A stretch of DNA of 64,000 nt from Candidatus Blackburnbacteria bacterium (GTDB lineage Bacteria; Patescibacteriota; Microgenomatia; UBA8517; UBA10165). The notes under the pieces are model-generated. The model had not been told where the DNA came from. It ran no database searches and saw nothing but the letters and a program-made list of their open reading frames with translations. Made by a program: the position numbers and the translations under genes. Shown in pieces: positions 10,890-49,552 of this stretch. Each line of letters opens with the position of its first letter. Position 1 is the first letter of the stretch. The DNA is taken from contig JACPEJ010000001.1 in assembly GCA_016183565.1 (NCBI GenBank), forward strand, positions 486,479 to 550,478, read 5' to 3'.

Positions 10890-10907
10890 TTTACAAAATA
10901 AATTTTT

Positions 10908-10925
10908 AAGGGGACGCCTTGCAAC
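10908..10925. repeat. REP palindrome copy a (reverse orientation): aaggggacgccttgcaa
   Basis: Reverse complement of TTGCAAGGCGTCCCCTT. Imperfect palindrome TGCAAGG-CGTCC-CCTTGCA. Confidence 0.7.
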
Positions 10926-10934
10926 CGTACTGAA

Positions 10935-11612
10935 CTAGTCGTCTTCAATAATTAGGTTGCTAGTTATCTGAGGAATTTCTTCCAATGCCATAAATTGTAT
11001 GTAGGACTTATGCTGTGTTTTGGGAAAGAAATTCAGAATTTCCTCTGGATGGATCCACGTGGTGTTGCGTAGTCCGCAATATTCGGGGTAGGAGCTTGGT
11101 TGGTTTTGCAAGGCGTCCCCTTGCAGGATTAAGGCTTGTTTGTGAATATACCGTGACAGATGCAGAAGCTGTTCATCAGTTTTAACAAGAACGGCTTTAT
11201 AGACATCTTGGTATAATGGTCCGACTCTCTTATACTTGGAATTAAAGTACATGGTATAGCGGGTTCCTAATGAGTTCATAAAGGGGTCAATTGCACTTTG
11301 GTTATTTTGTTTGATAAGAATGTGAAAGTGGTTGGGCATGAGGCAATATGCAACGAGGATAATGTCTGTTGCGAAGTTGTTAAGCCGAAGTAGCTTTCTG
11401 ATTCGATCTTTCTCATAAGGTGAGGTTGATTGATTTCCTAATTGCTCCATAAGTAGGTCTTTGTTAGCAGGTAGCAAGTATGTTTTTAGATAGGATAGGA
11501 ATACGCCGTAGTCCTGTTGATCCTGAAAGATAAGCCTTTTCTCTACCCCGCGGTTGTAGATATGGTAGTATCCGGTTGTTACATACTCCTTAACACTGTT
11601 TTTGGAGGGCAT
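10935..11612 (-). CDS. IS200-like / REP-associated tyrosine transposase (RAYT, HUH Y1 family)
   Basis: YHIYNRGVEKRLIF ... LVAYCLMPNHFHILIK (HUH motif) ... LSRYIHKQ (catalytic Tyr region). 225 aa. Confidence 0.7.
   Translation of the reverse strand: MPSKNSVKEYVTTGYYHIYNRGVEKRLIFQDQQDYGVFLSYLKTYLLPANKDLLMEQLGNQSTSPYEKDRIRKLLRLNNFATDIILVAYCLMPNHFHILIKQNNQSAIDPFMNSLGTRYTMYFNSKYKRVGPLYQDVYKAVLVKTDEQLLHLSRYIHKQALILQGDALQNQPSSYPEYCGLRNTTWIHPEEILNFFPKTQHKSYIQFMALEEIPQITSNLIIEDD
11104..11127. repeat. REP palindrome copy b, embedded in-frame in the RAYT ORF
   Basis: ttttgcaaggcgtccccttgcagg encodes ILQGDALQNQ on the minus strand, immediately after the RYIHKQ motif. Confidence 0.65.
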
Positions 11613-11640
11613 ACCTTAGGTTAATGGTATTGATTTGGTT

Positions 11641-11674
11641 TTGCAAGGTGTGCAAGGCGTCCCCTTGCAGGGGT
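11641..11674. repeat. REP palindrome copy c (tandem partial plus full copy)
   Basis: ttgcaaggtg tgcaaggcgtccccttgcagggg. Confidence 0.7.
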
Positions 11675-17356: not shown

Positions 17357-17911
17357 TCATTTTGCGTACTGAACAAACCCGAATTTTGCTGGTGGCCAGT
17401 ATACAAACCAGGCACGTCCCACAATTTTCTTTCTTTTCACGGGTCCCCAACGTCGACTATCGGAGGAGTTAGAACGATTGTCTCCCACCACAAAGTATTC
17501 ATCTTGACCCAGTTCTACTGGTTTTCCTTCCGGGCTCCATAGACCTACAGTTGTGTGGGTCTCAGGAGGAAGATAGTCTTCATTTAATATTTTGCCATTT
17601 ATAGATATTCTGCTTTCTTTGACCATTACTGTTTCGCCCGGAAGTCCAATAATGCGTTTTATATAATCTTCCCCTGGGGAGGGAGGCGCTGCAAAGACTA
17701 CCACATCGCCCCTTTTTGGTTTGCCAAAACGGTAGGAGATTTTGTCTGTTAGGAGGTATTCGTTGTCTTGGAAACTGGGGGACATGGAGTCACCTTTTAC
17801 TTGGTGGGGTTGAAATAGGAAGAGATATGCTAAAAGAAAGATGGCGAGTGCCAAGACTATTGTTTGGAGAAGGTCGAGAGTGAATGCTTTAAGGTTTTTT
17901 TCTTCGGGCAT
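17357..17911 (-). CDS. lepB: Signal peptidase I
   Basis: N-terminal TM; GDSMSPSF (Ser box), KRIIGLPGETV (Lys box), YFVVGDNRSNSSDSRRWG. Confidence 0.85.
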   Translation of the reverse strand: MPEEKNLKAFTLDLLQTIVLALAIFLLAYLFLFQPHQVKGDSMSPSFQDNEYLLTDKISYRFGKPKRGDVVVFAAPPSPGEDYIKRIIGLPGETVMVKESRISINGKILNEDYLPPETHTTVGLWSPEGKPVELGQDEYFVVGDNRSNSSDSRRWGPVKRKKIVGRAWFVYWPPAKFGFVQYAK

Positions 17912-17945: not shown

Positions 17946-18022
17946 TGGTGGACTCGGAAGGACTTGAACCTTCGACCCCTGCAATGTGAATGCAATGCTC
18001 TAGCCAACTGAGCTACGAGTCC
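17946..18022 (-). tRNA. tRNA-Val (anticodon CAC)
   Basis: Reverse-complement GGACTCGTAGCTCAGTTGGCTAGAGCATTGCATTCACATTGCAGGGGTCGAAGGTTCAAGTCCTTCCGAGTCCACCA folds as a cloverleaf. Anticodon loop TTCACAT; CCA encoded. Confidence 0.8.
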
Positions 18023-24080: not shown

Positions 24081-25392
24081 GCAATTTGTCCTTGCTTCGT
24101 GCTATTCCTAAATCACACGACACAGAAGTCAATTTCTCAAGAATTTCTTTATCTTGCGCTTTCAATATTGTATTTGCAAAAGATTTGATGTTGTGAGAAA
24201 ACGAGATTTCACTCTCATTTATGTTGTTTTTACTTATTGCAAACTCCACATCTTTGTTTTTCAATACCTCCCCCATTGCGCGGCTTATCACAAAAGGCTT
24301 TTTGTGGGTGATTGCCTGAGAAAGAGTGGCCGAGCTTCCAATCAGTCCTCGGTAAGGAAGAACAACCAAGTCAGAAGCCGAAAAGTATATACCGATTGCA
24401 TTTTCAGGAACAAAGCCGGTTATACATATTTTCTTTTGATCCTTGGCGCTTGCAAGAACTTGGGCGTAAAACTTTTTGTAATAGGCTTTGTCCTTCAAGG
24501 AATAAGCTTCTCCCCCGGCCAAAATGAGATTGATTCGTGTGAATTGGTTTTGTTGGCGAAGTTTTTTGACTGTTTTAATAATCCAATCCGCACCTTTGTA
24601 GTAAGTAATAAATCCGAAGTAAAGAAGAATAAAATCGTTTTTCGCGACATTAATTTTGGTTCGTGCTGTTTTTTGGGAAACTGTATTTTTCTTTTCAATC
24701 CAGAAAGGGTGGAGGAAAATTTTATTAGGGCTTACGAAGAAGGACAGCCTTTTGTAAATGGCCTCGTCCATAACTACAAAACGGTCAAGTAATATTCCCA
24801 AAGTCTTATAGAAGGCAATAACACCAATGTTTAAAATCTTAACAAGTAGAGAATTTTTCTTGTATCCCAAATGAGGAGCAATAGAATCAAAACTTGTAAT
24901 TACATTGTGTGAATAATATGTAATGTGCTTGCTGGCAAGCTTGATAAGCAACATAAAGGGGAACAAAAGCATGAAGTTTTTTATGCCGCCATTTGTGCAA
25001 AATTCCGAATGGATATCGACGTATTTGACTTTATTGAAAATAGAAAGCCAGTGGAGGATACGAGGAAATAGGGTTGGGTGTCTTTGGTCAAAAACTCGCA
25101 AAACAAGGATGCGTCCTCCAGCTGCCAGTTGGGGTTTGTTGCTTTGGCCTTTTTCTCCGAGCACAACAAAGCGCATATTGTAATCGTGCGCCAGAGATTG
25201 GTAAAGCTCTTTGGTGTACCAGGCGATGCCGTAGTTTTTTTCTCCTTTTTTGGTCTTTTCAGGCCAATCGGAGATTACCAAACGGGTATTTTTGTTGTTG
25301 AATTTTTGAATTAGATTTTGCATGTTTTTGTAGTAGCGGAATTTATTTCGCATGGCTATGTGTAAATTTAAAATAAAGGGGGGAGGCCACAA
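24007..25392 (-). CDS. Family 1 (GT4-like) glycosyltransferase; probable true start at 25353 or 25323
   Basis: C-terminal half ILAGGEAY...ITGFVPENAIGIYFSASDLVVLPY resembles a GT1 nucleotide-sugar-binding domain. The track ORF begins with an alternative TTG. Confidence 0.5.
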   Translation of the reverse strand: MWPPPFILNLHIAMRNKFRYYKNMQNLIQKFNNKNTRLVISDWPEKTKKGEKNYGIAWYTKELYQSLAHDYNMRFVVLGEKGQSNKPQLAAGGRILVLRVFDQRHPTLFPRILHWLSIFNKVKYVDIHSEFCTNGGIKNFMLLFPFMLLIKLASKHITYYSHNVITSFDSIAPHLGYKKNSLLVKILNIGVIAFYKTLGILLDRFVVMDEAIYKRLSFFVSPNKIFLHPFWIEKKNTVSQKTARTKINVAKNDFILLYFGFITYYKGADWIIKTVKKLRQQNQFTRINLILAGGEAYSLKDKAYYKKFYAQVLASAKDQKKICITGFVPENAIGIYFSASDLVVLPYRGLIGSSATLSQAITHKKPFVISRAMGEVLKNKDVEFAISKNNINESEISFSHNIKSFANTILKAQDKEILEKLTSVSCDLGIARSKDKLLESCYNQLYAMDQKSTKVIAPALA

Positions 25393-25441
25393 TCGAGAGC
25401 GAGTTGCTTAATCGAAAGTGGTCTCCCCGTGGGAAACAGTT

Positions 25442-26020
25442 CTAGCCGCCACCGAGCCGGCTGGTGAACTGACCCCAATTGAGGCCAGATGTCCAGATGG
25501 TCACTGGACCATTGGCCACGACGTTGGTGTACAACGTCGAGGGGTTCCTCTGGTCCGGCGTGTGCTGGACAGTTCCGGGCCCGGTCGCGATTCGCGATGG
25601 CACGTCCGTTGTCACGATGTTGGGCCAATTGACCCGAAGGCCTGTGGCCCGAACTTGGACCCCGGAGGCCAAGACGCGGCCGGCTGGGGAGGTCTCCTCC
25701 TCAATCTGCCGAGCCTCGACGGCCAGTCCGTCCCAGGTAAGGCCGGCGGCGCGAAGCCATGCCTCGATTCCCTGGGAGCGAAAGACCGGGTCCAGCTGCT
25801 CTAGCCGAGACCAGTGGGTTTGCACCGAGGCCGTAGCGGGTGCAGCTGTAGCCGCGGGTGGTCCACCTCCGACAGCCGGCGGTGCTGACGTGGCGGTAGC
25901 AACAGCAACCGGGCCGGGTGTTGCCGTTGGCCGAGCCGGACCGAGGGGGTCGCCTACCTCACAGGCTGCTGCCGCCAATGCCAATATCGTTGTCGTGATC
26001 ACTGCGATGATGGTCTTCAT
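25442..26020 (-). CDS. Putative lipoprotein (192 aa) within the high-GC island
   Basis: MKTIIAVITTTILALAAAAC: signal peptide with Cys (lipobox-like), then a Pro/Ala/Thr-rich linker. Confidence 0.5.
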   Translation of the reverse strand: MKTIIAVITTTILALAAAACEVGDPLGPARPTATPGPVAVATATSAPPAVGGGPPAATAAPATASVQTHWSRLEQLDPVFRSQGIEAWLRAAGLTWDGLAVEARQIEEETSPAGRVLASGVQVRATGLRVNWPNIVTTDVPSRIATGPGTVQHTPDQRNPSTLYTNVVANGPVTIWTSGLNWGQFTSRLGGG

Positions 26021-26030
26021 GACTCCTCCT

Positions 26031-26522
26031 CTACTCCCAGATTTGCCGCGCCGTCCAGGCGTCTTGGATAGTGATCAGGATTAGGACGGCGAACAGTGTC
26101 CAGAACGTTACGAACTCGGGCAACCCAACCCTGAAGTTGGTCAAGAACAGGGCTGCCAGAGTAAAGAACACCGATGTACCGACTGCGATTAGGCCACGAA
26201 CGACGCGCTGTCTGGTCCAGAAGCCAGCGGCGCCGGGTGCTACAGCCGGTACACGCAATAGGTAGACGGCTTCGATCACGTCCACTAGGAGCGTGATCAC
26301 CAGCTCGATATTGAGCGCAGCCTGCCTTGTGACGCTGGTCAAGAAGAACAGCGCCCCGAAGGCCAGAATGTCCAAGCCGAGTTCGGCCGGGACCAAGAGA
26401 GTGATGAGCCGACGCCAGAACGACATATTGGATCTCCTTTTTGGGATTTGTGCTAGAACCCTCGGGTTTACTGCAGTCCGAGGGACGACGATGACAACCG
26501 AACCTTCCCTCCTTTCAGGCAC
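26031..26522 (-). CDS. Small integral membrane protein (start possibly M33, nt 26426) within the high-GC island
   Basis: Four predicted TM helices. No motif recognised. Confidence 0.4.
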   Translation of the reverse strand: MPERREGSVVIVVPRTAVNPRVLAQIPKRRSNMSFWRRLITLLVPAELGLDILAFGALFFLTSVTRQAALNIELVITLLVDVIEAVYLLRVPAVAPGAAGFWTRQRVVRGLIAVGTSVFFTLAALFLTNFRVGLPEFVTFWTLFAVLILITIQDAWTARQIWE

Positions 26523-27491
26523 CTATCGGCAGGCCGTGAACCAGATCGTTCCGGCTTGGGTCTTTGGGGACCACACTCCGGGTTGACTGTACCGCACGCC
26601 GTTCACGTCCACGACCCACATGTCGTGGGCCATCAGCGGGCGTGCACGCTCGCTTGAGCTTGCTATGAACTTCCACCCGTTGCCAGGTGAAAGCTGCCGC
26701 AGCTCCCGGGTGAGCCTTCCGATTTCGTCTTCCGGCTGACCGGTTTTCCACTCAAGAAGAATCCGGGCCACCTCGGTGGCGTTGCGCGGGCAGGCAGCAG
26801 TGGGCTGTGTGATAGCCTGTGTTACGGCTTGCTGCGGGCCGCCGTGTTGGTCAACCCAGGCGTGCCAGGCAAACTCCGGACCGTAAACGGTCACGAAAGT
26901 TGCGATCACTTCCTGGGGCTGATTCCAGAATACCTGGCCATCCGCAGCAACTGCGGCACTGTCCCCAAGCTTGAGAAAGATATCCGATTGTTCGGGCCTC
27001 TCAATCTTGAAAACCCAATGGCTTGCGTCACCGTCCCAGTAGGTAAACGTCCGCGCCTCTGCTGGAACCGCAAACGTCGTTACCTCCTCCGGTGTTACCA
27101 CCTGCTGCGCAGCTACCTCGGCTCCCTGCACGAGGGATAGCGTCCTCTCGCCAGGGTTGGGTTGATACTCTGTAGGTCCCACAGGGGTGCACACAGAATT
27201 GGCCCAAACCGTTCCCCAGACTGGACTTTCGGTGCTACCGTCTACACGGCTGACGTTTCCACCCTCTACCTGGAGTGTGTCTCCAGGGTTGGGTGTCCAG
27301 GCTGTCGTGAAAGCAACCACTGCGCCTGCGGGACGGCTCTTGCCGTCGATAAGTACCTGCTGAACAACCCCGACCCACGTGTCGAGGCCTTCGAACGACC
27401 AGCAGTCGGCTGCTGCCACTCTTTGTGGAGTCAACAGCAAGCCAAGTACCAGTCCGATAGCGGCGAGCACGGTGCTCATACTGAGATACAT
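26523..27491 (-). CDS. Secreted hypothetical protein (322 aa) within the high-GC island
   Basis: Signal peptide MYLSMSTVLAAIGLVLGLLLTPQRVAAA. Strong SD. Confidence 0.5.
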   Translation of the reverse strand: MYLSMSTVLAAIGLVLGLLLTPQRVAAADCWSFEGLDTWVGVVQQVLIDGKSRPAGAVVAFTTAWTPNPGDTLQVEGGNVSRVDGSTESPVWGTVWANSVCTPVGPTEYQPNPGERTLSLVQGAEVAAQQVVTPEEVTTFAVPAEARTFTYWDGDASHWVFKIERPEQSDIFLKLGDSAAVAADGQVFWNQPQEVIATFVTVYGPEFAWHAWVDQHGGPQQAVTQAITQPTAACPRNATEVARILLEWKTGQPEDEIGRLTRELRQLSPGNGWKFIASSSERARPLMAHDMWVVDVNGVRYSQPGVWSPKTQAGTIWFTACR

Positions 27492-27608
27492 TTTGGACCT
27501 CCCTTTCCTGTTCCTGCTTGTATTTTTGTTTCCCTGTAAAAGTGCTCCGCTTGAGAGCGGAGAGAACGGTTTTACCTGCGTGGAACCGCTTTCTCCACGC
27601 TCAAAAGA

Positions 27609-28381: not shown

Positions 28382-29269
28382 TTACACACCACCATAGATG
28401 ATTTCTTCTTGACCTGTTTCGCTTCGATTCAGGTTATTTAGATCTGAGGGACTTTCCTCTTTATCTGGGTAGGCGATTACAACCAGTCTTTTCCAGGTAG
28501 TTCCGGGAGGCCAGCAGGTTTGCAAAATTAAGCGTTCTGCCCCATTTTGAGCCTTGTTTAGCCAGGAAACATCATCGGCGTCGACAATATGTTTTTCAGC
28601 AACTCTGTATTTGTACAGTTTTCCATCGTAGAAGACATAGATTTCGTCTTGGTTTTTGGGATCGAGTTCTCTTAAAAGGTAAAATACTGCGTTGTATTGG
28701 GAAACGTTCCAAGGCCCGTTGGTGGAGTGGGCAAAAAGGTAGGTGCCCCCATTTGTTCCTGGTAAAGAGGAGCCTTGGGCATGGGCGATGCCGTTTTTTA
28801 GTGCAGTTGTGTAATCTTTTTCGTTTCCTGCGTCAACATTTTTTATAACCGGAGATCGTGCGTCGATTTTAGGGATGTAGACAGAAAAGTCGAGATTTGT
28901 TATGCCAACTTGTTCTGCGAAAGTTTGAGCGTATTGGCGGTCAGCTTTATCTTGGTTTTGTATTGCCAAAAGTTCTGCGGTTTCTTTTTGCTTAGCGTAG
29001 GTTTGGAGCAAACTGTTTACGCGATAGTTGGTTTCGGAAGAAATAAGCGGGTAGCTGGCAAAACCCAGACCGGAAATACTTGTGATTATAAGCCCAAGAC
29101 CGATTCCTCGGATAAGTCCTAAGGCTGCTTCTGAATCTTGCAGGTGTTCCCATGTTTGGGTGAGCCTGTTATATACTAGCGCAAGACGGGACCCACGCTC
29201 GTAGATTATAATTATTTCCCCGGAATTTAAGCCCCATTTTGCATCGTAAATTACGCCTTGTGCGATCAT
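28382..29269 (-). CDS. Sortase (transpeptidase)
   Basis: N-terminal TM; catalytic triad context TYLFAHST (His), LILQTCWPPG (TLxTC Cys), WKRLVV (Arg). Confidence 0.7.
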   Translation of the reverse strand: MIAQGVIYDAKWGLNSGEIIIIYERGSRLALVYNRLTQTWEHLQDSEAALGLIRGIGLGLIITSISGLGFASYPLISSETNYRVNSLLQTYAKQKETAELLAIQNQDKADRQYAQTFAEQVGITNLDFSVYIPKIDARSPVIKNVDAGNEKDYTTALKNGIAHAQGSSLPGTNGGTYLFAHSTNGPWNVSQYNAVFYLLRELDPKNQDEIYVFYDGKLYKYRVAEKHIVDADDVSWLNKAQNGAERLILQTCWPPGTTWKRLVVIAYPDKEESPSDLNNLNRSETGQEEIIYGGV

Positions 29270-29380
29270 TTTAGTGAGGGTTTAGTAGCCCGTAGTATTT
29301 TATCATGTGGTATTAAAAATCGCTAGTTTAGTAGTTGGTGGCTATTAAGTGGTATGATATTATTGTTTTGTAAAGATTTC

Positions 29381-29455
29381 GCGGGTGTAGTTGAGTGGTA
29401 CAATGCTTCCTTCCCAAGGAAGAGTTCGTGGGTTCGATTCCCATCACCCGCTCCA
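29381..29455 (+). tRNA. tRNA-Gly (anticodon CCC)
   Basis: GCGGGTGTAGTTGAGTGGTACAATGCTTCCTTCCCAAGGAAGAGTTCGTGGGTTCGATTCCCATCACCCGCTCCA. Anticodon loop TTCCCAA; CCA encoded. Confidence 0.8.
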
Positions 29456-29463
29456 AACAAAAA

Positions 29464-29558
29464 GATCGAACTTTGCAAATTTTAGCTTCAGGAAATTGTT
29501 AAAGTTTACTGAAATCTAGGCTCATAACGTTATACCCAGAAGGGAATCGAACTTTTTA
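29464..29558. repeat. Left copy of a roughly 95-bp degenerate direct repeat (att-like) immediately 3' of tRNA-Gly
   Basis: gatcgaactttgcaaattttagcttcaggaaattgttaaag...gggaatcgaact is about 75% identical to 32343-32437. Confidence 0.5.
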
Positions 29559-29626
29559 GTTCAATCTGATAAAAATAGTTGAGCTTGGGAAAAACTACGC
29601 TTAAAGCTATAAAAGAGGCACTAAGT

Positions 29627-30616
29627 TTATTTTTTAGATAAGTCGCATTTGTAGTAACACAAGCCAGTTTTACCAATTATATTTTGTTTTGGAACAAAAC
29701 CCCATTCACGAGAGTCTGAACTGTATGGTCTATTATCTCCTAATACAAAATAACTATCAGCAGGTACAGTTATTTGTTGGCCTTCTTGCAAGAAAGCACC
29801 ACCATAAGTCTGTACATCAGATTTGAGATAAGAACTTTCATCAAGGGGCTGGTTATTTACAAGAACTTTCCCATTTTGTAATGCTACAGTGTCATTTGAA
29901 AGTCCGATGATTCTCTTGATGAAGTCTTTGTCAGGCTCTTTCGGGTACTTAAACACTACAACATCACCACGAGTAGGCTCACTTGATCTGTATACCATTT
30001 TGTTGACAAGGTAGTATTGACCATTCACATAATTTGGCGACATAGCTTGTCCTGCAATTTGGAAAGGTTGTGCAATGAATAAATAAACGATTAAGAAAAC
30101 TGTTGCAGCAGGGATAGGTAAACCGAACACTACAAACAGTAAGCCAAAGGTGACTTTCTGGCCTTTTGTCACCTTTTCTTCTTCAGTTATAGGAATTAAA
30201 ACACCTGTGCTATCTGTTTTGACAACAAAGGTTTTAGCGAGCTTATCGTGCCATGCTTGCCTCTTGCCATTGATGATTACCCATAAATACCCCAAGTTGA
30301 AGATTAAACCAGAGAGTAGTTTTCCGATACTTTCCCGAAGAAGTGCAGAACCAAAGCTAACTGGTTGGTAAGAACCATTAACAACTTTCAACTTTAATAA
30401 CTTTTTCCCTGGAGTGTGTCCTGATTTCCAAATGAATAGTGTTCCATATAAGATTGAAACTATCCAAAATAGCAAATTAAGAAGTACTTTTGCCAATGAA
30501 GCAAGTATGAAGGACAGTACAAGAGTAACTACAAAGAGGATAATTTCGTCAATGATTAAAGCGAGTAGCCGTTCCCAGAACGTTCCTTTCTTATAAATTC
30601 TGTTTTCTATTTCCAT
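29627..30616 (-). CDS. RDD-domain membrane module fused to signal peptidase I
   Basis: N-terminus WERLLALIIDEIILFVV plus TM helices (RDD-like). C-terminus GQAMSPNYVNGQYY...GDVVVFKYP...KRIIGLSNDTV...YFVLGDNRPYSSDSREWG is SPase I. Confidence 0.65.
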   Translation of the reverse strand: MEIENRIYKKGTFWERLLALIIDEIILFVVTLVLSFILASLAKVLLNLLFWIVSILYGTLFIWKSGHTPGKKLLKLKVVNGSYQPVSFGSALLRESIGKLLSGLIFNLGYLWVIINGKRQAWHDKLAKTFVVKTDSTGVLIPITEEEKVTKGQKVTFGLLFVVFGLPIPAATVFLIVYLFIAQPFQIAGQAMSPNYVNGQYYLVNKMVYRSSEPTRGDVVVFKYPKEPDKDFIKRIIGLSNDTVALQNGKVLVNNQPLDESSYLKSDVQTYGGAFLQEGQQITVPADSYFVLGDNRPYSSDSREWGFVPKQNIIGKTGLCYYKCDLSKK

Positions 30617-30717
30617 AATAAGATTAGTATTTCAAAGAAAATTGACAAAAGCAATGATCTTAAAATAATAATTCATCTTTACCGCAAGGATCGCTTTATT
30701 GCACAGCAAGAACTTGT

Positions 30718-31554
30718 TCATTTTAAAAGTCTCTTACTTTGTTTTTTAGGTAAATAATTCCGTGAGGTTATTACTTTCCTGCCGGTTTCTTTTTCCAAAT
30801 TAGATCTGGCATCTCCGGCAATTTTGCCTCCACGCTTTGAGACTTGTTTATTTTTCTCAAACCCTTTGGGATGTTCTGTTTTGGTAATTTCTGTGGTTGC
30901 TGCTTCACCCAATTGGGAAAACAAAAGTTCCAAATCACTCATATGATCACGCAGGTTTTGACGTTTGAGTCCTTTTATTTTCTTATGTTCCGATGGAGTA
31001 ACACCAAAAGTGGCTTTAGATATCTCGGCAGTCAGTATTTTATACTCTTTTGCCAGTTCTACACCATGTTTTTGCCATTCATCCGTCAATTCTTCCCTAA
31101 TGGCAATAGAACGCATTCTTCTTTCGATCCAATCCTCTGGATAGCCTTTGGCTTTATAAAGCGCTCGGGCCCGTTTTTGGGCTAACTCCGGATCTTCTAT
31201 CTCTTGCACCCTTTCATAACCAACCTTGGCTAACCATCTTTTAAAAGGTTCTGCTTTAGGGGAAGGAACCGATTGAATAATTCGGAAAATTCCCTCAGTA
31301 TTTGCACATCTTACTTTTTGTTTTCCTCCTGAAGTTTCTATCAAAAGGGGGTGTTCAATTTGAACCCACCCTTTAGCCAGTTCTTCGTCTCGGTTAAGCA
31401 TATTCTTTAAATATTGTTTGGGGTTTTGCGAATCAGTTAAAGTAGCGATTACGTCAGTAATAACAAACCACCACTCATTTTTATGGATAGTCTTTCTTAT
31501 TTTTCTGTTTCGGAAAACAGCTATTTTAGTTATTTGGGTTATTTCTTGATTCAT
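30718..31554 (-). CDS. Bro-N domain protein (phage antirepressor / DinD-like)
   Basis: FRNRKIRKTIHKNEWWFVITDVIATL resembles the Bro-N N-terminal domain. Basic C-terminus. Confidence 0.5.
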   Translation of the reverse strand: MNQEITQITKIAVFRNRKIRKTIHKNEWWFVITDVIATLTDSQNPKQYLKNMLNRDEELAKGWVQIEHPLLIETSGGKQKVRCANTEGIFRIIQSVPSPKAEPFKRWLAKVGYERVQEIEDPELAQKRARALYKAKGYPEDWIERRMRSIAIREELTDEWQKHGVELAKEYKILTAEISKATFGVTPSEHKKIKGLKRQNLRDHMSDLELLFSQLGEAATTEITKTEHPKGFEKNKQVSKRGGKIAGDARSNLEKETGRKVITSRNYLPKKQSKRLLK

Positions 31555-31700
31555 CTTTATTAAAAATTGTTGCTATACTTTATTATACATAGGAAACCCG
31601 TAATTACTAGTAGCTTTATAAGAGAAAACCAGTTTATTCTTTGGTCGGAGAACTTTTTAGGACTAAATTAGGCTCCAATTCGTACAAAAAATCTGGTAAA

Positions 31701-31716
31701 ATAAGCATAGCTTGAT
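31701..31716. promoter_or_regulatory. Palindromic operator-like motif ATAAGC-ATA-GCTTGAT
   Basis: One of three copies of ATCAAGC-N3-GCTTGAT, located in the divergent intergenic region. Confidence 0.35.
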
Positions 31717-31866
31717 ACTCGCTGGTGCTCGTATTAGGCGAGGAGCTAAATTCTTGGATAAATCCTGTCAGTCTGTGTAACAGTACGTCAGGATCTCCAA
31801 AAGTGACAGAAATAAACAGAAAATTACATTAACTGATACAAACTAGATCAAAAAACAAGTCAAGTT

Positions 31867-32202
31867 ATGTTAGAACAAGAAACAGAAAGAATCTCACCAA
31901 TTGAATATTTGAGAATCCTACGTGACGATTATTCTAATGAAATTCCAGAACAGGTACTACACGGACCAGTCACCAACTCAGATAGAAAGAAATTTAAGGT
32001 TAGAAGGAATTGGTGGAATGGTGTTGTTGGAGGTTTAGGAAGATTGCGGTTAAAAGGTTTAGTGCCCACAGGATTAGAACAAGAAGTACAAGATTTTGTT
32101 GACCATTATTCGTCTGAAGAATTCCACAGTCAACCACTCACTACAGCAGAGGATATCGCAAGAGCAAACGAGATAATTACAAAAATTGTTGGAGATAGGT
32201 AG
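31867..32202 (+). CDS. Hypothetical protein (111 aa)
   Basis: ORF only. No motif. Confidence 0.3.
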   Translation: MLEQETERISPIEYLRILRDDYSNEIPEQVLHGPVTNSDRKKFKVRRNWWNGVVGGLGRLRLKGLVPTGLEQEVQDFVDHYSSEEFHSQPLTTAEDIARANEIITKIVGDR

Positions 32203-32342
32203 TATCATTCAAAGTTGTAGGAAATTTTGAATACCCACTCGTTCTTTAAGAGCTTGCAACTGTAAAACTAGATCTGTTGTGATATAGTCGCCCAGGCCAA
32301 AGTGGTTCGAGCCAATTACGGTATCCAGCTCCATAGGATTTT

Positions 32343-32437
32343 AATCGAACTCGTGGATTTTAGCTTCAGAAAGTCGTTAAATTTCGCTAAAATCTAATTC
32401 TATAACTTAATACCCTAACGGGAATCGAACTGTTTTT
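32343..32437. repeat. Right copy of the roughly 95-bp direct repeat, preceded by a tRNA-3'-end-like fragment
   Basis: aatcgaactcgtggattttagcttcagaaagtcgttaaat...gggaatcgaact. Upstream ...gtggttcgagcc...gctcca resembles a tRNA T-arm / 3' end. Confidence 0.5.
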
Positions 32438-32461
32438 GGGGCGTAAAATTATACCTAATCA

Positions 32462-33538
32462 TCAGTTAGAACATTCAGGATTTCTGGCAATATCCTCTGG
32501 GTCGTCACACATCCTTGCTTTTTGCATCCCTTCTAAGTCATTTATCCCAACTCCAATGTAAACATCCTGCTCTTCAAGCGGTAAGTCTTCAACGCGCCCA
32601 CTGTCAAAGTAAGGAGGACGGTCGCTAAAGTTAGGACCACCTTGTTTAAATTTACAAGGATGAGTAAGACGATATTCTTTTGAAAGGGTCATATCCTCAC
32701 GGCTTTTGAGCCCTGGTATGGCAGCCTGATACCGGGCAAAAACTTCATCTGTCATATAATTAAATACTGAATTCAATTTCTTATATGGCTCACCATTACC
32801 ATTTTTAAACATCGGAGGTATAGCGATAACACCCATTCTCACCTGTGTACCTTTAATTCTTTGGCCATAACGGTCAAGAGCATTCACATAACCAACCAAA
32901 GTTCCTGCTTTAACAAAATGGATTGGTGGATCCTGAAACTGCGGCAAGACATGAGTATGATTCATAGCAAACCTCCACTGATTAAACGGCCACCAAGGAA
33001 TTCCAGATTTAGGGACCATTGTTACCCCTTCGTCAACTAAAGTATTCGGCGCACTACCTAAAATATAACCGTCAAATGGTGCATAGATTCCTATTTTATC
33101 AGGATCGACACTTGCAAGAATGGGGATATAATGCTGCATATTACTAACAGGCTCATCAGAATATTGGTCCACAGTTTGGTGCCCACTGCAACTTCGATAT
33201 TTAGTAAATCTGTGAACTTGATTAAGATCAATAAAATTCTTAGTAATCAAAAAATCTTTCGGCGGTTTATCAGGAGCAAACTGGCTGATTAAACTAAGTA
33301 ATACCAAAATAGTAATCGGAGTAAAAACAATCCACCGGAGGACACGCTTTAACAGAATTTGCTTAACCAACAGTTGAGATAAGAAAGACGAGACAAAGTA
33401 TAGAGGAATCAGAGTTAGCAGCCACACGGGCTGGACAGTTTCAGGATGGGTAAAAAGTAAAAATAAAAAAGAGGTAAGAAGAAATAAAAAAATTGTAATA
33501 CCTATGTTATCCAAATTGGGTTTAAGCAGTTTACCCAT
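32462..33538 (-). CDS. Hypothetical membrane protein (358 aa)
   Basis: N-terminal TM helices, then a Cys-containing soluble domain. No motif. Confidence 0.4.
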   Translation of the reverse strand: MGKLLKPNLDNIGITIFLFLLTSFLFLLFTHPETVQPVWLLTLIPLYFVSSFLSQLLVKQILLKRVLRWIVFTPITILVLLSLISQFAPDKPPKDFLITKNFIDLNQVHRFTKYRSCSGHQTVDQYSDEPVSNMQHYIPILASVDPDKIGIYAPFDGYILGSAPNTLVDEGVTMVPKSGIPWWPFNQWRFAMNHTHVLPQFQDPPIHFVKAGTLVGYVNALDRYGQRIKGTQVRMGVIAIPPMFKNGNGEPYKKLNSVFNYMTDEVFARYQAAIPGLKSREDMTLSKEYRLTHPCKFKQGGPNFSDRPPYFDSGRVEDLPLEEQDVYIGVGINDLEGMQKARMCDDPEDIARNPECSN

Positions 33539-33676
33539 ACCTTTAGTAAATCATAGTTAAGAGCTAGTATCAATAACTTTTTGAATATCTACAATTTTTA
33601 GAAAAAACTGGATCTGGAATTAGAAATTATATCGAATTTCTAATATGCATACTTATACAGTTTTTAGTTCTAAAAC

Positions 33677-33692
33677 ATAAGCAGAGCTTGAT
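33677..33692. promoter_or_regulatory. Palindromic operator-like motif ATAAGC-AGA-GCTTGAT
   Basis: Second copy, about 130 bp upstream of the 33538 start. Confidence 0.35.
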
Positions 33693-33801
33693 TTCTCGCA
33701 AGCTCGAAATTAGACTAAATCGGGTAATAGACCGTCAGACAGGAACAATCTTATGAACTCTGGCAGTCTGGCTAAGATCACGTCAGGAGCTCATCAGAAA
33801 G

Positions 33802-48650: not shown

Positions 48651-48894
48651 GTGTTGTGAGCCGCTTAGTGCCTTAAACAGACTGAAAGAATTTTTCAAAT
48701 TATTCCTTACTGATGGTCTAAACTCCGAATTTGCTTATACCTTTGGTCTAAAAGATGCATAATTAAGTACATTAACTTTTTTTAGATCCGCAAGTGCGGA
48801 TCGCAAGCTCTGCTTATAGGGTTATTGACTTCTGTACTTATTTATGGTTAAATAAAAATAATCACGCCCCTCGAGAAATCGGGGGGGTATTTTT

Positions 48895-49493
48895 TTAAAC
48901 GAAGATGTCTACCCCTAATTTATCTACAGCCTTAGTAAAAATTCTTTTCTCGATCTGATAAACTTCCTTACCCATATGCCCGTGAGCAAAAATCACAATC
49001 ACCTGTTTGTGTAGGCTTATTAAAAGTTTGTATAAAGGAGCGAAATCACCATCTCCTGAGAAAAACAAAAAGGATTCAAAATCATTTTTTATTGCTTTGT
49101 GAGCGTCTATAGAAATTTCCATATCGAAATCACACTTTCTTCGTAGAACCTTGCGGCTTAGGATCTGTAGAATTTTTTCTATATCCTTTGCTTCAAGATT
49201 TTTAATTAAGGACAGAGAGTTCTTTATTTCTAGAGATAGGTTCTTATATCTCCGGGTAGTGTTTTAGATTCTTAAATAACTTCTTTTGGATCAACCTCTT
49301 TTTTTAGGGATTTCGTCCAGCCATAAATATTTGCCCAATCAATAAAAACTACGGTTTTACCTTTTAATTTGAATCTAAATTCAGAATTGCTCATTATTTT
49401 TATAATAGCACAAAGAAAACCTCCGGGTCGAAGTGAGCCGGAGGGAATAAGGTTACTATCCTTGTGGCTCGCCTTTGGCGGCATAAGGATCAT
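48895..49493 (-). pseudogene. Disrupted NYN/LabA-like nuclease gene split into two ORFs
   Basis: 49272-49493 encodes the N-terminal half (KTVVFIDWANIYGW). 48895-49122 encodes the C-terminal half (FLFFSGDGDFAPLYKLLISLHKQVIVI). They are separated by a 150-bp segment with frame disruption. Confidence 0.5.
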
Positions 49494-49552
49494 TCGGTGG
49501 GATTAGTATAGCACAAACTTGTTCTTAGTTTTTGGTATATAATATTAACTAA

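Follow-up and report, generated by a model that had tools for sequence, protein, structure and literature searches.

A probable tandem array of recombinase-less gene cassettes at the 3′ end of tRNA-Gly(CCC) in a Blackburnbacteria genome

Introduction

What has been inserted behind the tRNA-Gly(CCC) gene of a Candidatus Blackburnbacteria bacterium, and by what means? The gene lies in a stretch of 64,000 nucleotides of contig JACPEJ010000001.1 (positions 486,479–550,478; GenBank assembly GCA_016183565.1), which we call the window and number from its first letter. Behind the tRNA gene, a repeat of about 95 bp occurs twice. An earlier reading of the letters alone (the sequence-only reading) took the two copies for the attL and attR of one old element that had lost its integrase. 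We found a different arrangement. The segment 29447–33800 is probably a tandem array of at least two cassettes of 1–2.5 kb at the 3′ end of tRNA-Gly(CCC); they carry no recombinase and would be moved by one encoded elsewhere. The evidence is a family of paired left and right arms, which enclose different genes at different loci and begin or end at sharply defined points.

Bacteria of the Candidate Phyla Radiation (CPR), whose genomes are tiny, live on other cells. Their mobile elements and gene-exchange routes are poorly known, and few such elements have been described. In the literature we found no description of elements of the present kind in Patescibacteria.

Results

Layout of the array

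Two conserved blocks serve as labels throughout: R1, the left block (~105 nt), and E2, the right block (~130–200 nt), with E2v as a variant right block. Profile models of R1 and E2 were built from the first copies, and the window and further loci were searched using nhmmer. The further loci, named L0xx, are metagenome or genome sequences outside the window (L010 and L045 are counted together). For the R1 family, a metagenome scan with the pattern TTTTAGCTTCA-N(40–65)-GGGAATCGAAC yielded 35 loci. tRNA genes were called using ARAGORN and the Rfam covariance model, and protein families were assigned using Pfam and NCBIfam.

In the window, tRNA-Gly(CCC) is followed by module 1, which consists of R1a, a gene for an RDD–signal peptidase fusion (RDD-SPase), a Bro-N gene and E2v. 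An open reading frame (ORF) of 111 aa and a tRNA-like piece come next, and then module 2, with R1b, a gene for a 358-aa protein and E2a. A LysM gene and tRNA-Asp lie beyond it. The features are as follows.

29381–29455, plus strand: tRNA-Gly(CCC), proposed insertion target (ARAGORN; Rfam tRNA, 67.9 bits)
29447–29563, plus strand: R1a, left arm of module 1 (nhmmer E 3e-31; family alignment)
29627–30616, minus strand: RDD–signal peptidase I (S26) fusion, cargo (Pfam RDD 3.9e-25, Peptidase_S26 6.9e-47; TIGR02227)
30718–31554, minus strand: Bro-N protein, cargo (Pfam Bro-N 1.5e-14)
31599–31799, plus strand: E2v, variant right arm of module 1 (nhmmer with the E2v model, E 5e-52; end CGTCAGGATCTC-CA at 31786–31799)
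31867–32202, plus strand: ORF111, 111 aa, between E2v and R1b (no Pfam or NCBIfam match)
32296–32333, plus strand: decayed tRNA-like 3′ piece (GGTTCGAGCC...CCAGCTCCA) in front of R1b
32325–32442, plus strand: R1b, left arm of module 2 (nhmmer E 1.8e-33)
32462–33538, minus strand: 358-aa membrane-anchored protein with a predicted LytM/M23-like fold, cargo of module 2 (AlphaFold2 model and Foldseek)
33626–33800, plus strand: E2a, right arm of module 2 (nhmmer E 2e-41; CGTCAGGAGCTC end at 33781–33792)

The GC content is 37% in 29456–33800; both its flanks and the remainder of the window have 42%. This agrees with the earlier suggestion that foreign DNA was inserted at the 3′ end of tRNA-Gly. Pfam also bore out the gene content given for the interval between the repeats (the RDD-SPase fusion, Bro-N and the 111-aa ORF) and the lack of an integrase there. 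ORF111 is a remnant in its own right or else the distal portion of module 1. In the second case, the tRNA-like piece would be the displaced att copy of that module, in line with the sequence-only reading. The order of E2v, ORF, tRNA-like piece and R1 is repeated in L023. A promoter and terminator scan of 29.3–34.7 kb gave counts at chance level.

R1, the left arm

The two repeats exist much as first described: 29464–29558 and 32343–32437 align with 73 identities in 97 positions (75%). Their ungapped core (29479–29557 and 32357–32435, 79 nt) reaches 77% identity. Two degenerate probes for the repeat each matched only these two places in the 64 kb, where shuffled sequences gave an expectation of 0.00–0.01. 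Both repeats belong to the R1 family, which has 22 copies at nhmmer E < 1e-12 among the 35 scanned loci and occurs at about 21 loci beyond the window. R1b is 88.8% identical to the R1 of L034 and 86.4% identical to that of L021, but only 72–77% identical to R1a.

In R1, the motif ATCGAAC occurs twice in direct orientation, at a distance of about 80 nt. The shorter string ATCGAA has a background frequency of 2.7e-4 per nucleotide; about 21 of 24 copies have it at fixed positions of R1 (18 and 98–99), of which position 18 lies outside the pattern used for the metagenome scan. ATCGAA is also found at the left end of 7 of the 15 E2 copies. No conserved RNA fold emerged for R1: the alignment fold had only 3 pairs, and the z-scores of single-sequence folds of the repeat ranged from –0.6 to –1.4.

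Copies of the repeats at many unrelated sites, as in a generic repeat family, had been named beforehand as evidence against the att reading. This applies in part: R1 is a family with many loci, but it is specific to tRNA 3′ ends and does not behave as a generic dispersed repeat. The many scattered copies typical of repetitive extragenic palindromes (REP) or miniature inverted-repeat transposable elements were not seen: the 64 kb hold only two R1 and three E2 copies, and R1 always follows the 3′ end of a tRNA or tRNA-like piece, or E2.

The tRNA-like pieces are decayed. One of them precedes R1 in seven cases that have no intact tRNA in front, namely R1b of the window, L052, L023, L027, L043, L016 and L026. 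The sequence-only reading had recognized a tRNA 3′-end-like fragment ahead of the second repeat. Taken alone, this piece is no better than chance: the tRNA covariance model did not match it even in a 146-nt search, and local alignment with the tRNA gave only GGTTCGA, a result equalled by 540 of 2000 shuffles. However, CCAGCTCCA at 32325–32333 is the conserved start of the R1 family, and L052 has a comparable piece (GGTTCGAGCACATTATCGTTACCAGCTCCA) ahead of its R1. T-arm-like remnants also precede other secondary R1 copies in the family alignment.

A third conserved non-coding block precedes R1 copies that lack a tRNA in L010 (9606–9830) and L038 (12298–12064). It has GC-rich hairpins, ends with CGTAAA(G/C)GAGCTCCA and may be a further right-arm variant. 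In L010 this block comes after an XRE/ImmA-like gene pair, as read from the sequence, and a 621-aa DUF4379 zinc-ribbon protein, the C-terminal part of which resembles a nuclease by eye.

The tRNA target and the left boundary

The final bases of tRNA-Gly(CCC), ...CCCGCTC-CA, overlap the start of R1a. An intact tRNA-Gly precedes R1 in at least 10 loci, with R1 starting within the last ~8 nt of the tRNA. The anticodon is mostly TCC, and CCC occurs in L036, L049 and the window. In a single case (L018), R1 starts inside tRNA-Arg(TCG) instead. In the family alignment, the left boundary of R1 falls at the tRNA 3′ end with single-nucleotide precision. The T-arms of the target tRNAs vary between loci, and therefore the shared part is limited to (C/G)(C/G)NGC(T/A)CCA.

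The window has tRNA genes at 17946, 20916, 29381, 34520, 50648 and 55427, and the 3′ CCA is encoded in two of the six (tRNA-Val and tRNA-Gly). The tRNA-Gly genes of L025 and L026, which are not directly followed by R1, have no encoded CCA; thus the CA after GCTC appears to be contributed by R1. Upstream of the target tRNA we found a sortase gene in the window and an S11 peptidase or AI-2E transporter gene elsewhere.

In the independent Logan assemblies SRR12113424 and SRR12113430, contigs stop exactly at 29455 and the next contigs begin at 29426, with an overlap of 29–30 nt. The assembly graph therefore has a branch point where tRNA-Gly ends, which is the proposed site of recombination. The branch could reflect alternative continuations past tRNA-Gly, or other organisms that have the same tRNA 3′ end.

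Small GIY-YIG nuclease genes (~80–90 aa) lie directly at tRNA-Gly in L025 (7434–7747), L026 (281–617) and L043 (6562–6834). The gene of L026 is located between the tRNA and R1, within a 13-nt duplication of the tRNA 3′ end (CCCTCACCCGCTC). These genes are a second type of insertion at the same tRNA-Gly target.

E2 and E2v, the right arms

E2 lies 1–2.3 kb 3′ of R1 and in the same orientation in ten loci (L010/L045, L021, L029, L033, L034, L036, L038, L043, L052 and the window). Its copies end identically or nearly so with ...CGTCAGGAGCTC and diverge beyond this point, the exceptions being the decayed copy of L043 and E2b, a further copy in the window. Over 162 nt, E2a and the L020 E2 share 92% identity, and E2a carries a 33-nt hairpin insertion at 33684–33705.

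The E2 model matched the right arm of module 1 only in part (31754–31803). Arms of the E2v kind occur in the window, L023 and L041; their final ~40 nt and end point are those of E2, and the body is different. Judged by this sequence comparison, the seeming partial E2 of the window is therefore a complete variant arm.

E2 passes straight into R1 via GGAGCTCCA in L020 and L041. This tandem junction is not an assembly artefact, because the two R1 copies of L020 are only ~80% identical. The tRNA end and the E2 end have only the core GCTC in common, to which CA is added in about half of the right junctions. The element is thus bounded by a direct repeat of the tRNA end, ...CCCGCTC-CA on the left and GGAGCTC(CA) on the right, of only 4–6 nt, in every locus apart from the decayed copies, L043 and E2b. 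The right arm of L043 borders on a tRNA-Gly(CCC) gene in inverted position, at the 3′ end of that gene; the palindromic core GAGCTC might permit this orientation.

The alignment fold of E2 contained one 10-pair hairpin with no compensatory change. In Rfam searches, only tRNAs reached the gathering score in the window; no meaningful match was obtained at E ≤ 10 for 29200–32700 or at E ≤ 5 for E2a and the L041 E2|R1 junction.

Exchange of cargo between loci

The cargo between R1 and E2 differs at every locus and comprises 1–3 genes in either orientation. It includes NYN, sigma70_r4-like and ABC transporter genes, an HhH-GPD-like gene with a cytidine deaminase, an S58 peptidase, two methyltransferases, a Gp49/HTH (HigBA-like) toxin–antitoxin pair and genes without an assigned function. 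The flanks beyond the arms are not syntenic between loci.

Parts of the window modules recur in other combinations. R1a and the SPase gene are 80% identical to L052 over 1270 nt; in L052 the SPase gene alone forms a single-gene cassette, closed by a standard E2 and adjoined by an unrelated oxidoreductase gene. Bro-N with E2v matches L041 (1559–519) with 81.6% identity over 1074 nt, and a different gene stands beside R1 in L041. L010 and L038 have 340 nt around R1 in common and differ in their cargo. L010, a Patescibacteria metagenome-assembled genome (MAG), carries an R1 copy on one side of the 358-aa gene and an E2, matching window 33631–33793, on the other. These arms are oriented as in the window, and the gene between them is inverted. 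A 14-nt motif near the start of the 358-aa gene is common to the window and L010, possibly by chance.

The two repeats of the window are therefore independent family members and not the two ends of one insertion, since R1b is nearer to foreign copies and parts of the modules recur elsewhere in other settings. What had been taken for attL and attR is the same left arm twice, and each copy has a right arm of its own, E2v or E2a.

The cargo of the two modules

The suggestion that the signal peptidase is cargo found support. The window encodes a canonical stand-alone signal peptidase I of 184 aa at 17357–17911, and thus the fusion enzyme is a second, accessory copy. The RDD-SPase of the L052 cassette is 90% identical at the amino acid level, in an unrelated context. 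About 60 relatives of the fusion were found.

The gene at 32462 had been regarded as the host flank, that is, the gene expected to follow tRNA-Gly directly at an empty site. It lies itself in an R1...E2 module, and the family is patchily transferred, occurring in CPR bacteria and DPANN archaea. Relatives at 60–87% identity occur in Pacearchaeota, Woesearchaeota and Patescibacteria; those at 59–72%, in these groups and in 'Saccharibacteria' MAGs, lie on contigs of 30–61% GC. Between CPR bacteria and DPANN archaea, the identity is 60–75%. The family has only ~60 clusters and no conserved neighbours. Homologues of the 358-aa protein or of the SPase in L050, L051, L053 and L057–L061 stand in contexts without R1 and E2.

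The 358-aa protein had no Pfam, NCBIfam or PDB sequence match. Its AlphaFold model, based on a 43-sequence alignment, had a predicted local distance difference test score of 82 and showed three N-terminal membrane helices and a beta-rich domain. In Foldseek, the best PDB matches were nearly all LytM/M23 proteins (lysostaphin, Csd1/2, DipM, EnvC), with E values from 2e-3 and probabilities up to 0.98. The sequence contains HxxxD- and HxH-like motifs, not all of which are kept across the family. The model is thus weakly consistent with a LytM/M23-like identity, and the protein may be a wall-hydrolysing tool passed among episymbionts.

A possible third module

A possible third, decayed module was found elsewhere in the window.

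48653–49544, minus strand: possible decayed module with E2x (49482–49544), a frameshifted NYN gene (~48900–49400) and E2b (48653–48799)

E2b was detected by the E2 model (nhmmer E 1.9e-30), and the frameshift is visible in the translation of the NYN gene. NYN genes are also cassette cargo in L021 and L023. The E2x block matches L029 and L033 about 70 nt upstream of their E2; it is promoter-like and includes TGCTATACT. A HigBA-like toxin–antitoxin pair separates E2x from E2 in L038 (9808–10700), as the frameshifted NYN gene does in the window. This suggests a second insertion point within the right arm.

Search for a recombinase or a phage link

The cassettes have att-like arms with conserved outer boundaries at both ends and cargo without mobility genes, as cis-mobilizable elements (CIMEs) do. 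A regular expression for the tyrosine-recombinase boxes had no match among 132 ORFs. Pfam revealed no recombinase in the cargo of 10 other cassettes or in the window ORFs of 14.6–53.6 kb. In a pooled Pfam scan of 61 flank ORFs, no integrase was among the best 25 of 86 families, where a single one could escape. No integrase adjoined the target tRNA, in the manner of an IntI/attI neighbourhood, in the window or the other loci checked. Neither the 35 metagenome loci nor the viral contigs yielded an autonomous relative that shares these att sites. A phage origin was rejected, as viral contigs had no match to the R1 or E2 pattern or to the 358-aa protein. Exact-protein look-ups of flank genes for an empty site returned only the same haplotype for the sortase, and nothing for LysM, Bro-N and the 358-aa protein.

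REP-associated tyrosine transposase (RAYT)-like Y1 genes occur 4–18 kb from cassettes in the window, L021, L038 and L043. The window RAYT appears an unlikely mover: its own REP hairpin TGCAAGGCGTCCCCTTGCA is unrelated to R1 and E2 and absent from the cassettes. An IS200 element lies beside a 358-aa homologue in L060, where neither R1 nor E2 is present.

Discussion

Proposed mechanism

A cassette would consist of R1, starting after ...GCTC, 1–3 cargo genes, and E2 or E2v ending with ...CGTCAGGAGCTC. From this anatomy and from the family, which are observed, we infer a recombination mechanism and a separate enzyme. In a free circle, E2-GCTC(CA)-R1 would form a bipartite site of ~270 bp, similar to an attP of the lambda type, and attB would be the 3′ end of the tRNA. 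A site-specific recombinase from elsewhere in the genome or community would insert cassettes at GCTC(CA), and each fresh insertion would displace the older cassettes downstream. The arms would act as protein-binding DNA rather than RNA, a preference that draws on the missing R1 fold, the uncorroborated E2 hairpin, the lack of an Rfam match and the fixed ATCGAA.

Several observations weigh against the tandem cassette array. A GCTC(CA) core of only 4–6 nt is short for the overlap of a tyrosine recombinase. In L010, the same arms enclose the 358-aa gene in the opposite orientation to that of the window, and L038 and the window (48.6–49.5 kb) have cargo at another site as well, between E2x and E2. 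ORF111 and the tRNA-like piece separate E2v from R1b by 520 nt, where E2 should abut R1 in a simple tandem model. By regular expression and Pfam, a search that was not exhaustive, neither the cassettes nor the checked window ORFs nor the locus flanks yielded a recombinase. No read across a circular junction or an empty site was seen. Finally, E2 may have a role as RNA, the covariation tests being low-powered (11–20 sequences of ~80% identity).

Alternative explanations

Among the rivals, exchange of cargo at homology anchors ranks above transposition by a Y1 (HUH) transposase, and we still consider it unlikely. R1 and E2 would then be conserved host non-coding sequence (a tRNA trailer, promoter, terminator or small RNA) at a hotspot, between which genes are swapped by homologous recombination after DNA uptake. 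Such a process would need no recombinase of the kind we failed to find. It fits cargo in both orientations and at two internal positions, including the 358-aa gene inverted between the same arms, as well as the promoter-like E2x (TGCTATACT) and the ragged inner edges of the arms. The outer edges speak otherwise, being nucleotide-sharp at the 3′ ends of three tRNA species and at the E2 ends; if the arms were homology anchors or RNAs, this sharp tRNA-end boundary would still require explanation. Genomes also hold several arm copies and tandem E2|R1 junctions, the flanks outside the arms lack synteny, and arms of 105–200 nt at ~80% identity are a poor substrate for recombination between lineages. 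A Y1 transposase acting on non-autonomous single-strand transposons of the IS200/IS605 kind, inserted 3′ of GCTC and ending in R1 on the left and E2 on the right, is in our view improbable. The 4-nt common core suits it, and the GCTC at the E2 end would offer a new target and so explain the tandem arrays. An imperfect hairpin can be seen in R1 (by eye in the alignment) and in E2, and RAYT-like Y1 genes lie 4–18 kb off in four loci. IS200/IS605 elements, however, carry similar hairpins at both ends; those of R1 and E2 are dissimilar and without compensatory changes, and the window RAYT is flanked by an unrelated REP hairpin that does not occur in the cassettes.

The original proposal of one old integrase-less element at 29381–32437, with attL and attR made of the tRNA end or fragment plus 95 nt and the 32462 gene as host, deserves equally little credence. 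A direct repeat with a tRNA-like piece ahead of its second copy, and the same order in L023, are what it would lead one to expect. A variant, in which the tRNA-like piece alone is the att duplication and R1b comes from an older element, agrees with the arrangement of the parts. The original proposal has against it that R1b is nearer to the R1 of other genomes than to R1a, and that E2v ends at the usual right-end point of the family, 520 nt ahead of R1b. In addition, the 358-aa gene has a closing E2 of its own and lies between R1 and E2 again in L010, and the tRNA-like piece alone is not significant. We give hardly any weight to a local tandem duplication of tRNA-Gly and 95 nt, with decay of the second tRNA and no mobile element at all. 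The same orientation of the repeats and the tRNA-like piece before copy 2 conform to it, but R1 occurs at ~21 other loci behind different tRNAs and E2, and R1a and R1b are each closer to foreign copies than to one another.

Comparison with known systems

The closest parallels of the tandem cassette array are CIMEs and accretion arrays at tRNA or tmRNA genes and the stacked tRNA islands of Prochlorococcus, treated below; three further systems also share features with it. Like a lambda-type attP, the E2|R1 site would be an asymmetric, bipartite site of ~270 bp with a short core, integration at tRNA 3′ ends and, in the repeated ATCGAAC, candidate arm-type sites. It differs in that no integrase was identified and that the core seemingly has only 4–6 nt. 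Integrons share the arrays of promoter-poor one-gene units with diverse cargo, the conserved recombination site between them and the recombinase outside the cassette. An integron attC is an imperfect dyad of 57–141 bp that folds on one strand, and integron cassettes stand in one orientation. Here, there is no IntI/attI beside the array, the ~270-bp E2|R1 spacer has no attC-like dyad, cargo genes point either way, often with a promoter of their own, and entry is at a tRNA 3′ end. Xer-dependent modules, such as the pdif modules of Acinetobacter plasmids and integrative mobile elements exploiting Xer (for example, the CTX phage), have no recombinase, use the host tyrosine recombinase and are bounded by dif-like sites of 28 bp. 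The cassettes resemble them as small, recombinase-less, stackable units with accessory or toxin–antitoxin cargo, but we recognized no dif-like dyad, and the target is a tRNA end.

The ssrA islands of Dehalococcoides stand in tandem 3′ of a tRNA-like gene, with short repeats of its 3′ end as bounds; 15 of them, half, lack an integration module and are thought to have moved in cis or in trans (PMC3146451). CIMEs and these islands share with the present array the tandem accretion at a tRNA-like gene and units without an integration module. The present cassettes differ in size (1–2.5 kb, 1–3 genes), in the lack of a recombinase in all of ~15 cassettes and of any autonomous relative found, and in their long dissimilar arms (~105 and 130–200 nt), in place of which the ssrA islands have only a 20-bp repeat. 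Prochlorococcus tycheposons insert repeatedly at tRNA 3′ ends, stack with partial tRNA copies, leave degenerate remnants and carry adaptive cargo (bioRxiv 10.1101/2020.12.28.424599). The cassettes are likewise stacked, partly degenerate insertions at a tRNA 3′ end with accessory cargo. Tycheposons are much larger and have their own tyrosine recombinase and replication or packaging genes, which the cassettes lack.

A broader proposal is tentative. CPR bacteria of the Blackburnbacteria/Microgenomates kind could possess an integron-like capture platform, with tRNA-Gly as the entry and the ~270-bp E2|R1 unit as the site, at which one recombinase encoded elsewhere shuffles one-gene cassettes within and between genomes, some of the genes being shared with DPANN archaea. 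If the cassettes are what we propose, they would be a compact means for small CPR genomes to sample accessory genes. The cargo includes envelope proteases, a putative LytM-like wall hydrolase shared with DPANN archaea, toxin–antitoxin pairs and methyltransferases. The R1 and E2 models provide a sequence handle on this variable gene pool and, through co-occurrence, on the missing recombinase.

Other features of the window

The RAYT-like Y1 gene of the window (10935–11612, minus strand) lies within 10905–11669 and is flanked by the hairpin TGCAAGGCGTCCCCTTGCA. One more copy of the hairpin is inside the gene and another is at 60121–60139. Such a layout is the classic one of REP/RAYT systems, here found in a CPR genome.

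A GC-rich island of 58% GC occupies 25100–27550 in the 42% GC genome. It encodes three ORFs (192, 163 and 322 aa) without Pfam or NCBIfam matches, and the 322-aa ORF has a signal peptide. The island is not an assembly chimera, because it is 100% identical in independent Logan assemblies. It looks like a recent transfer from a high-GC organism.

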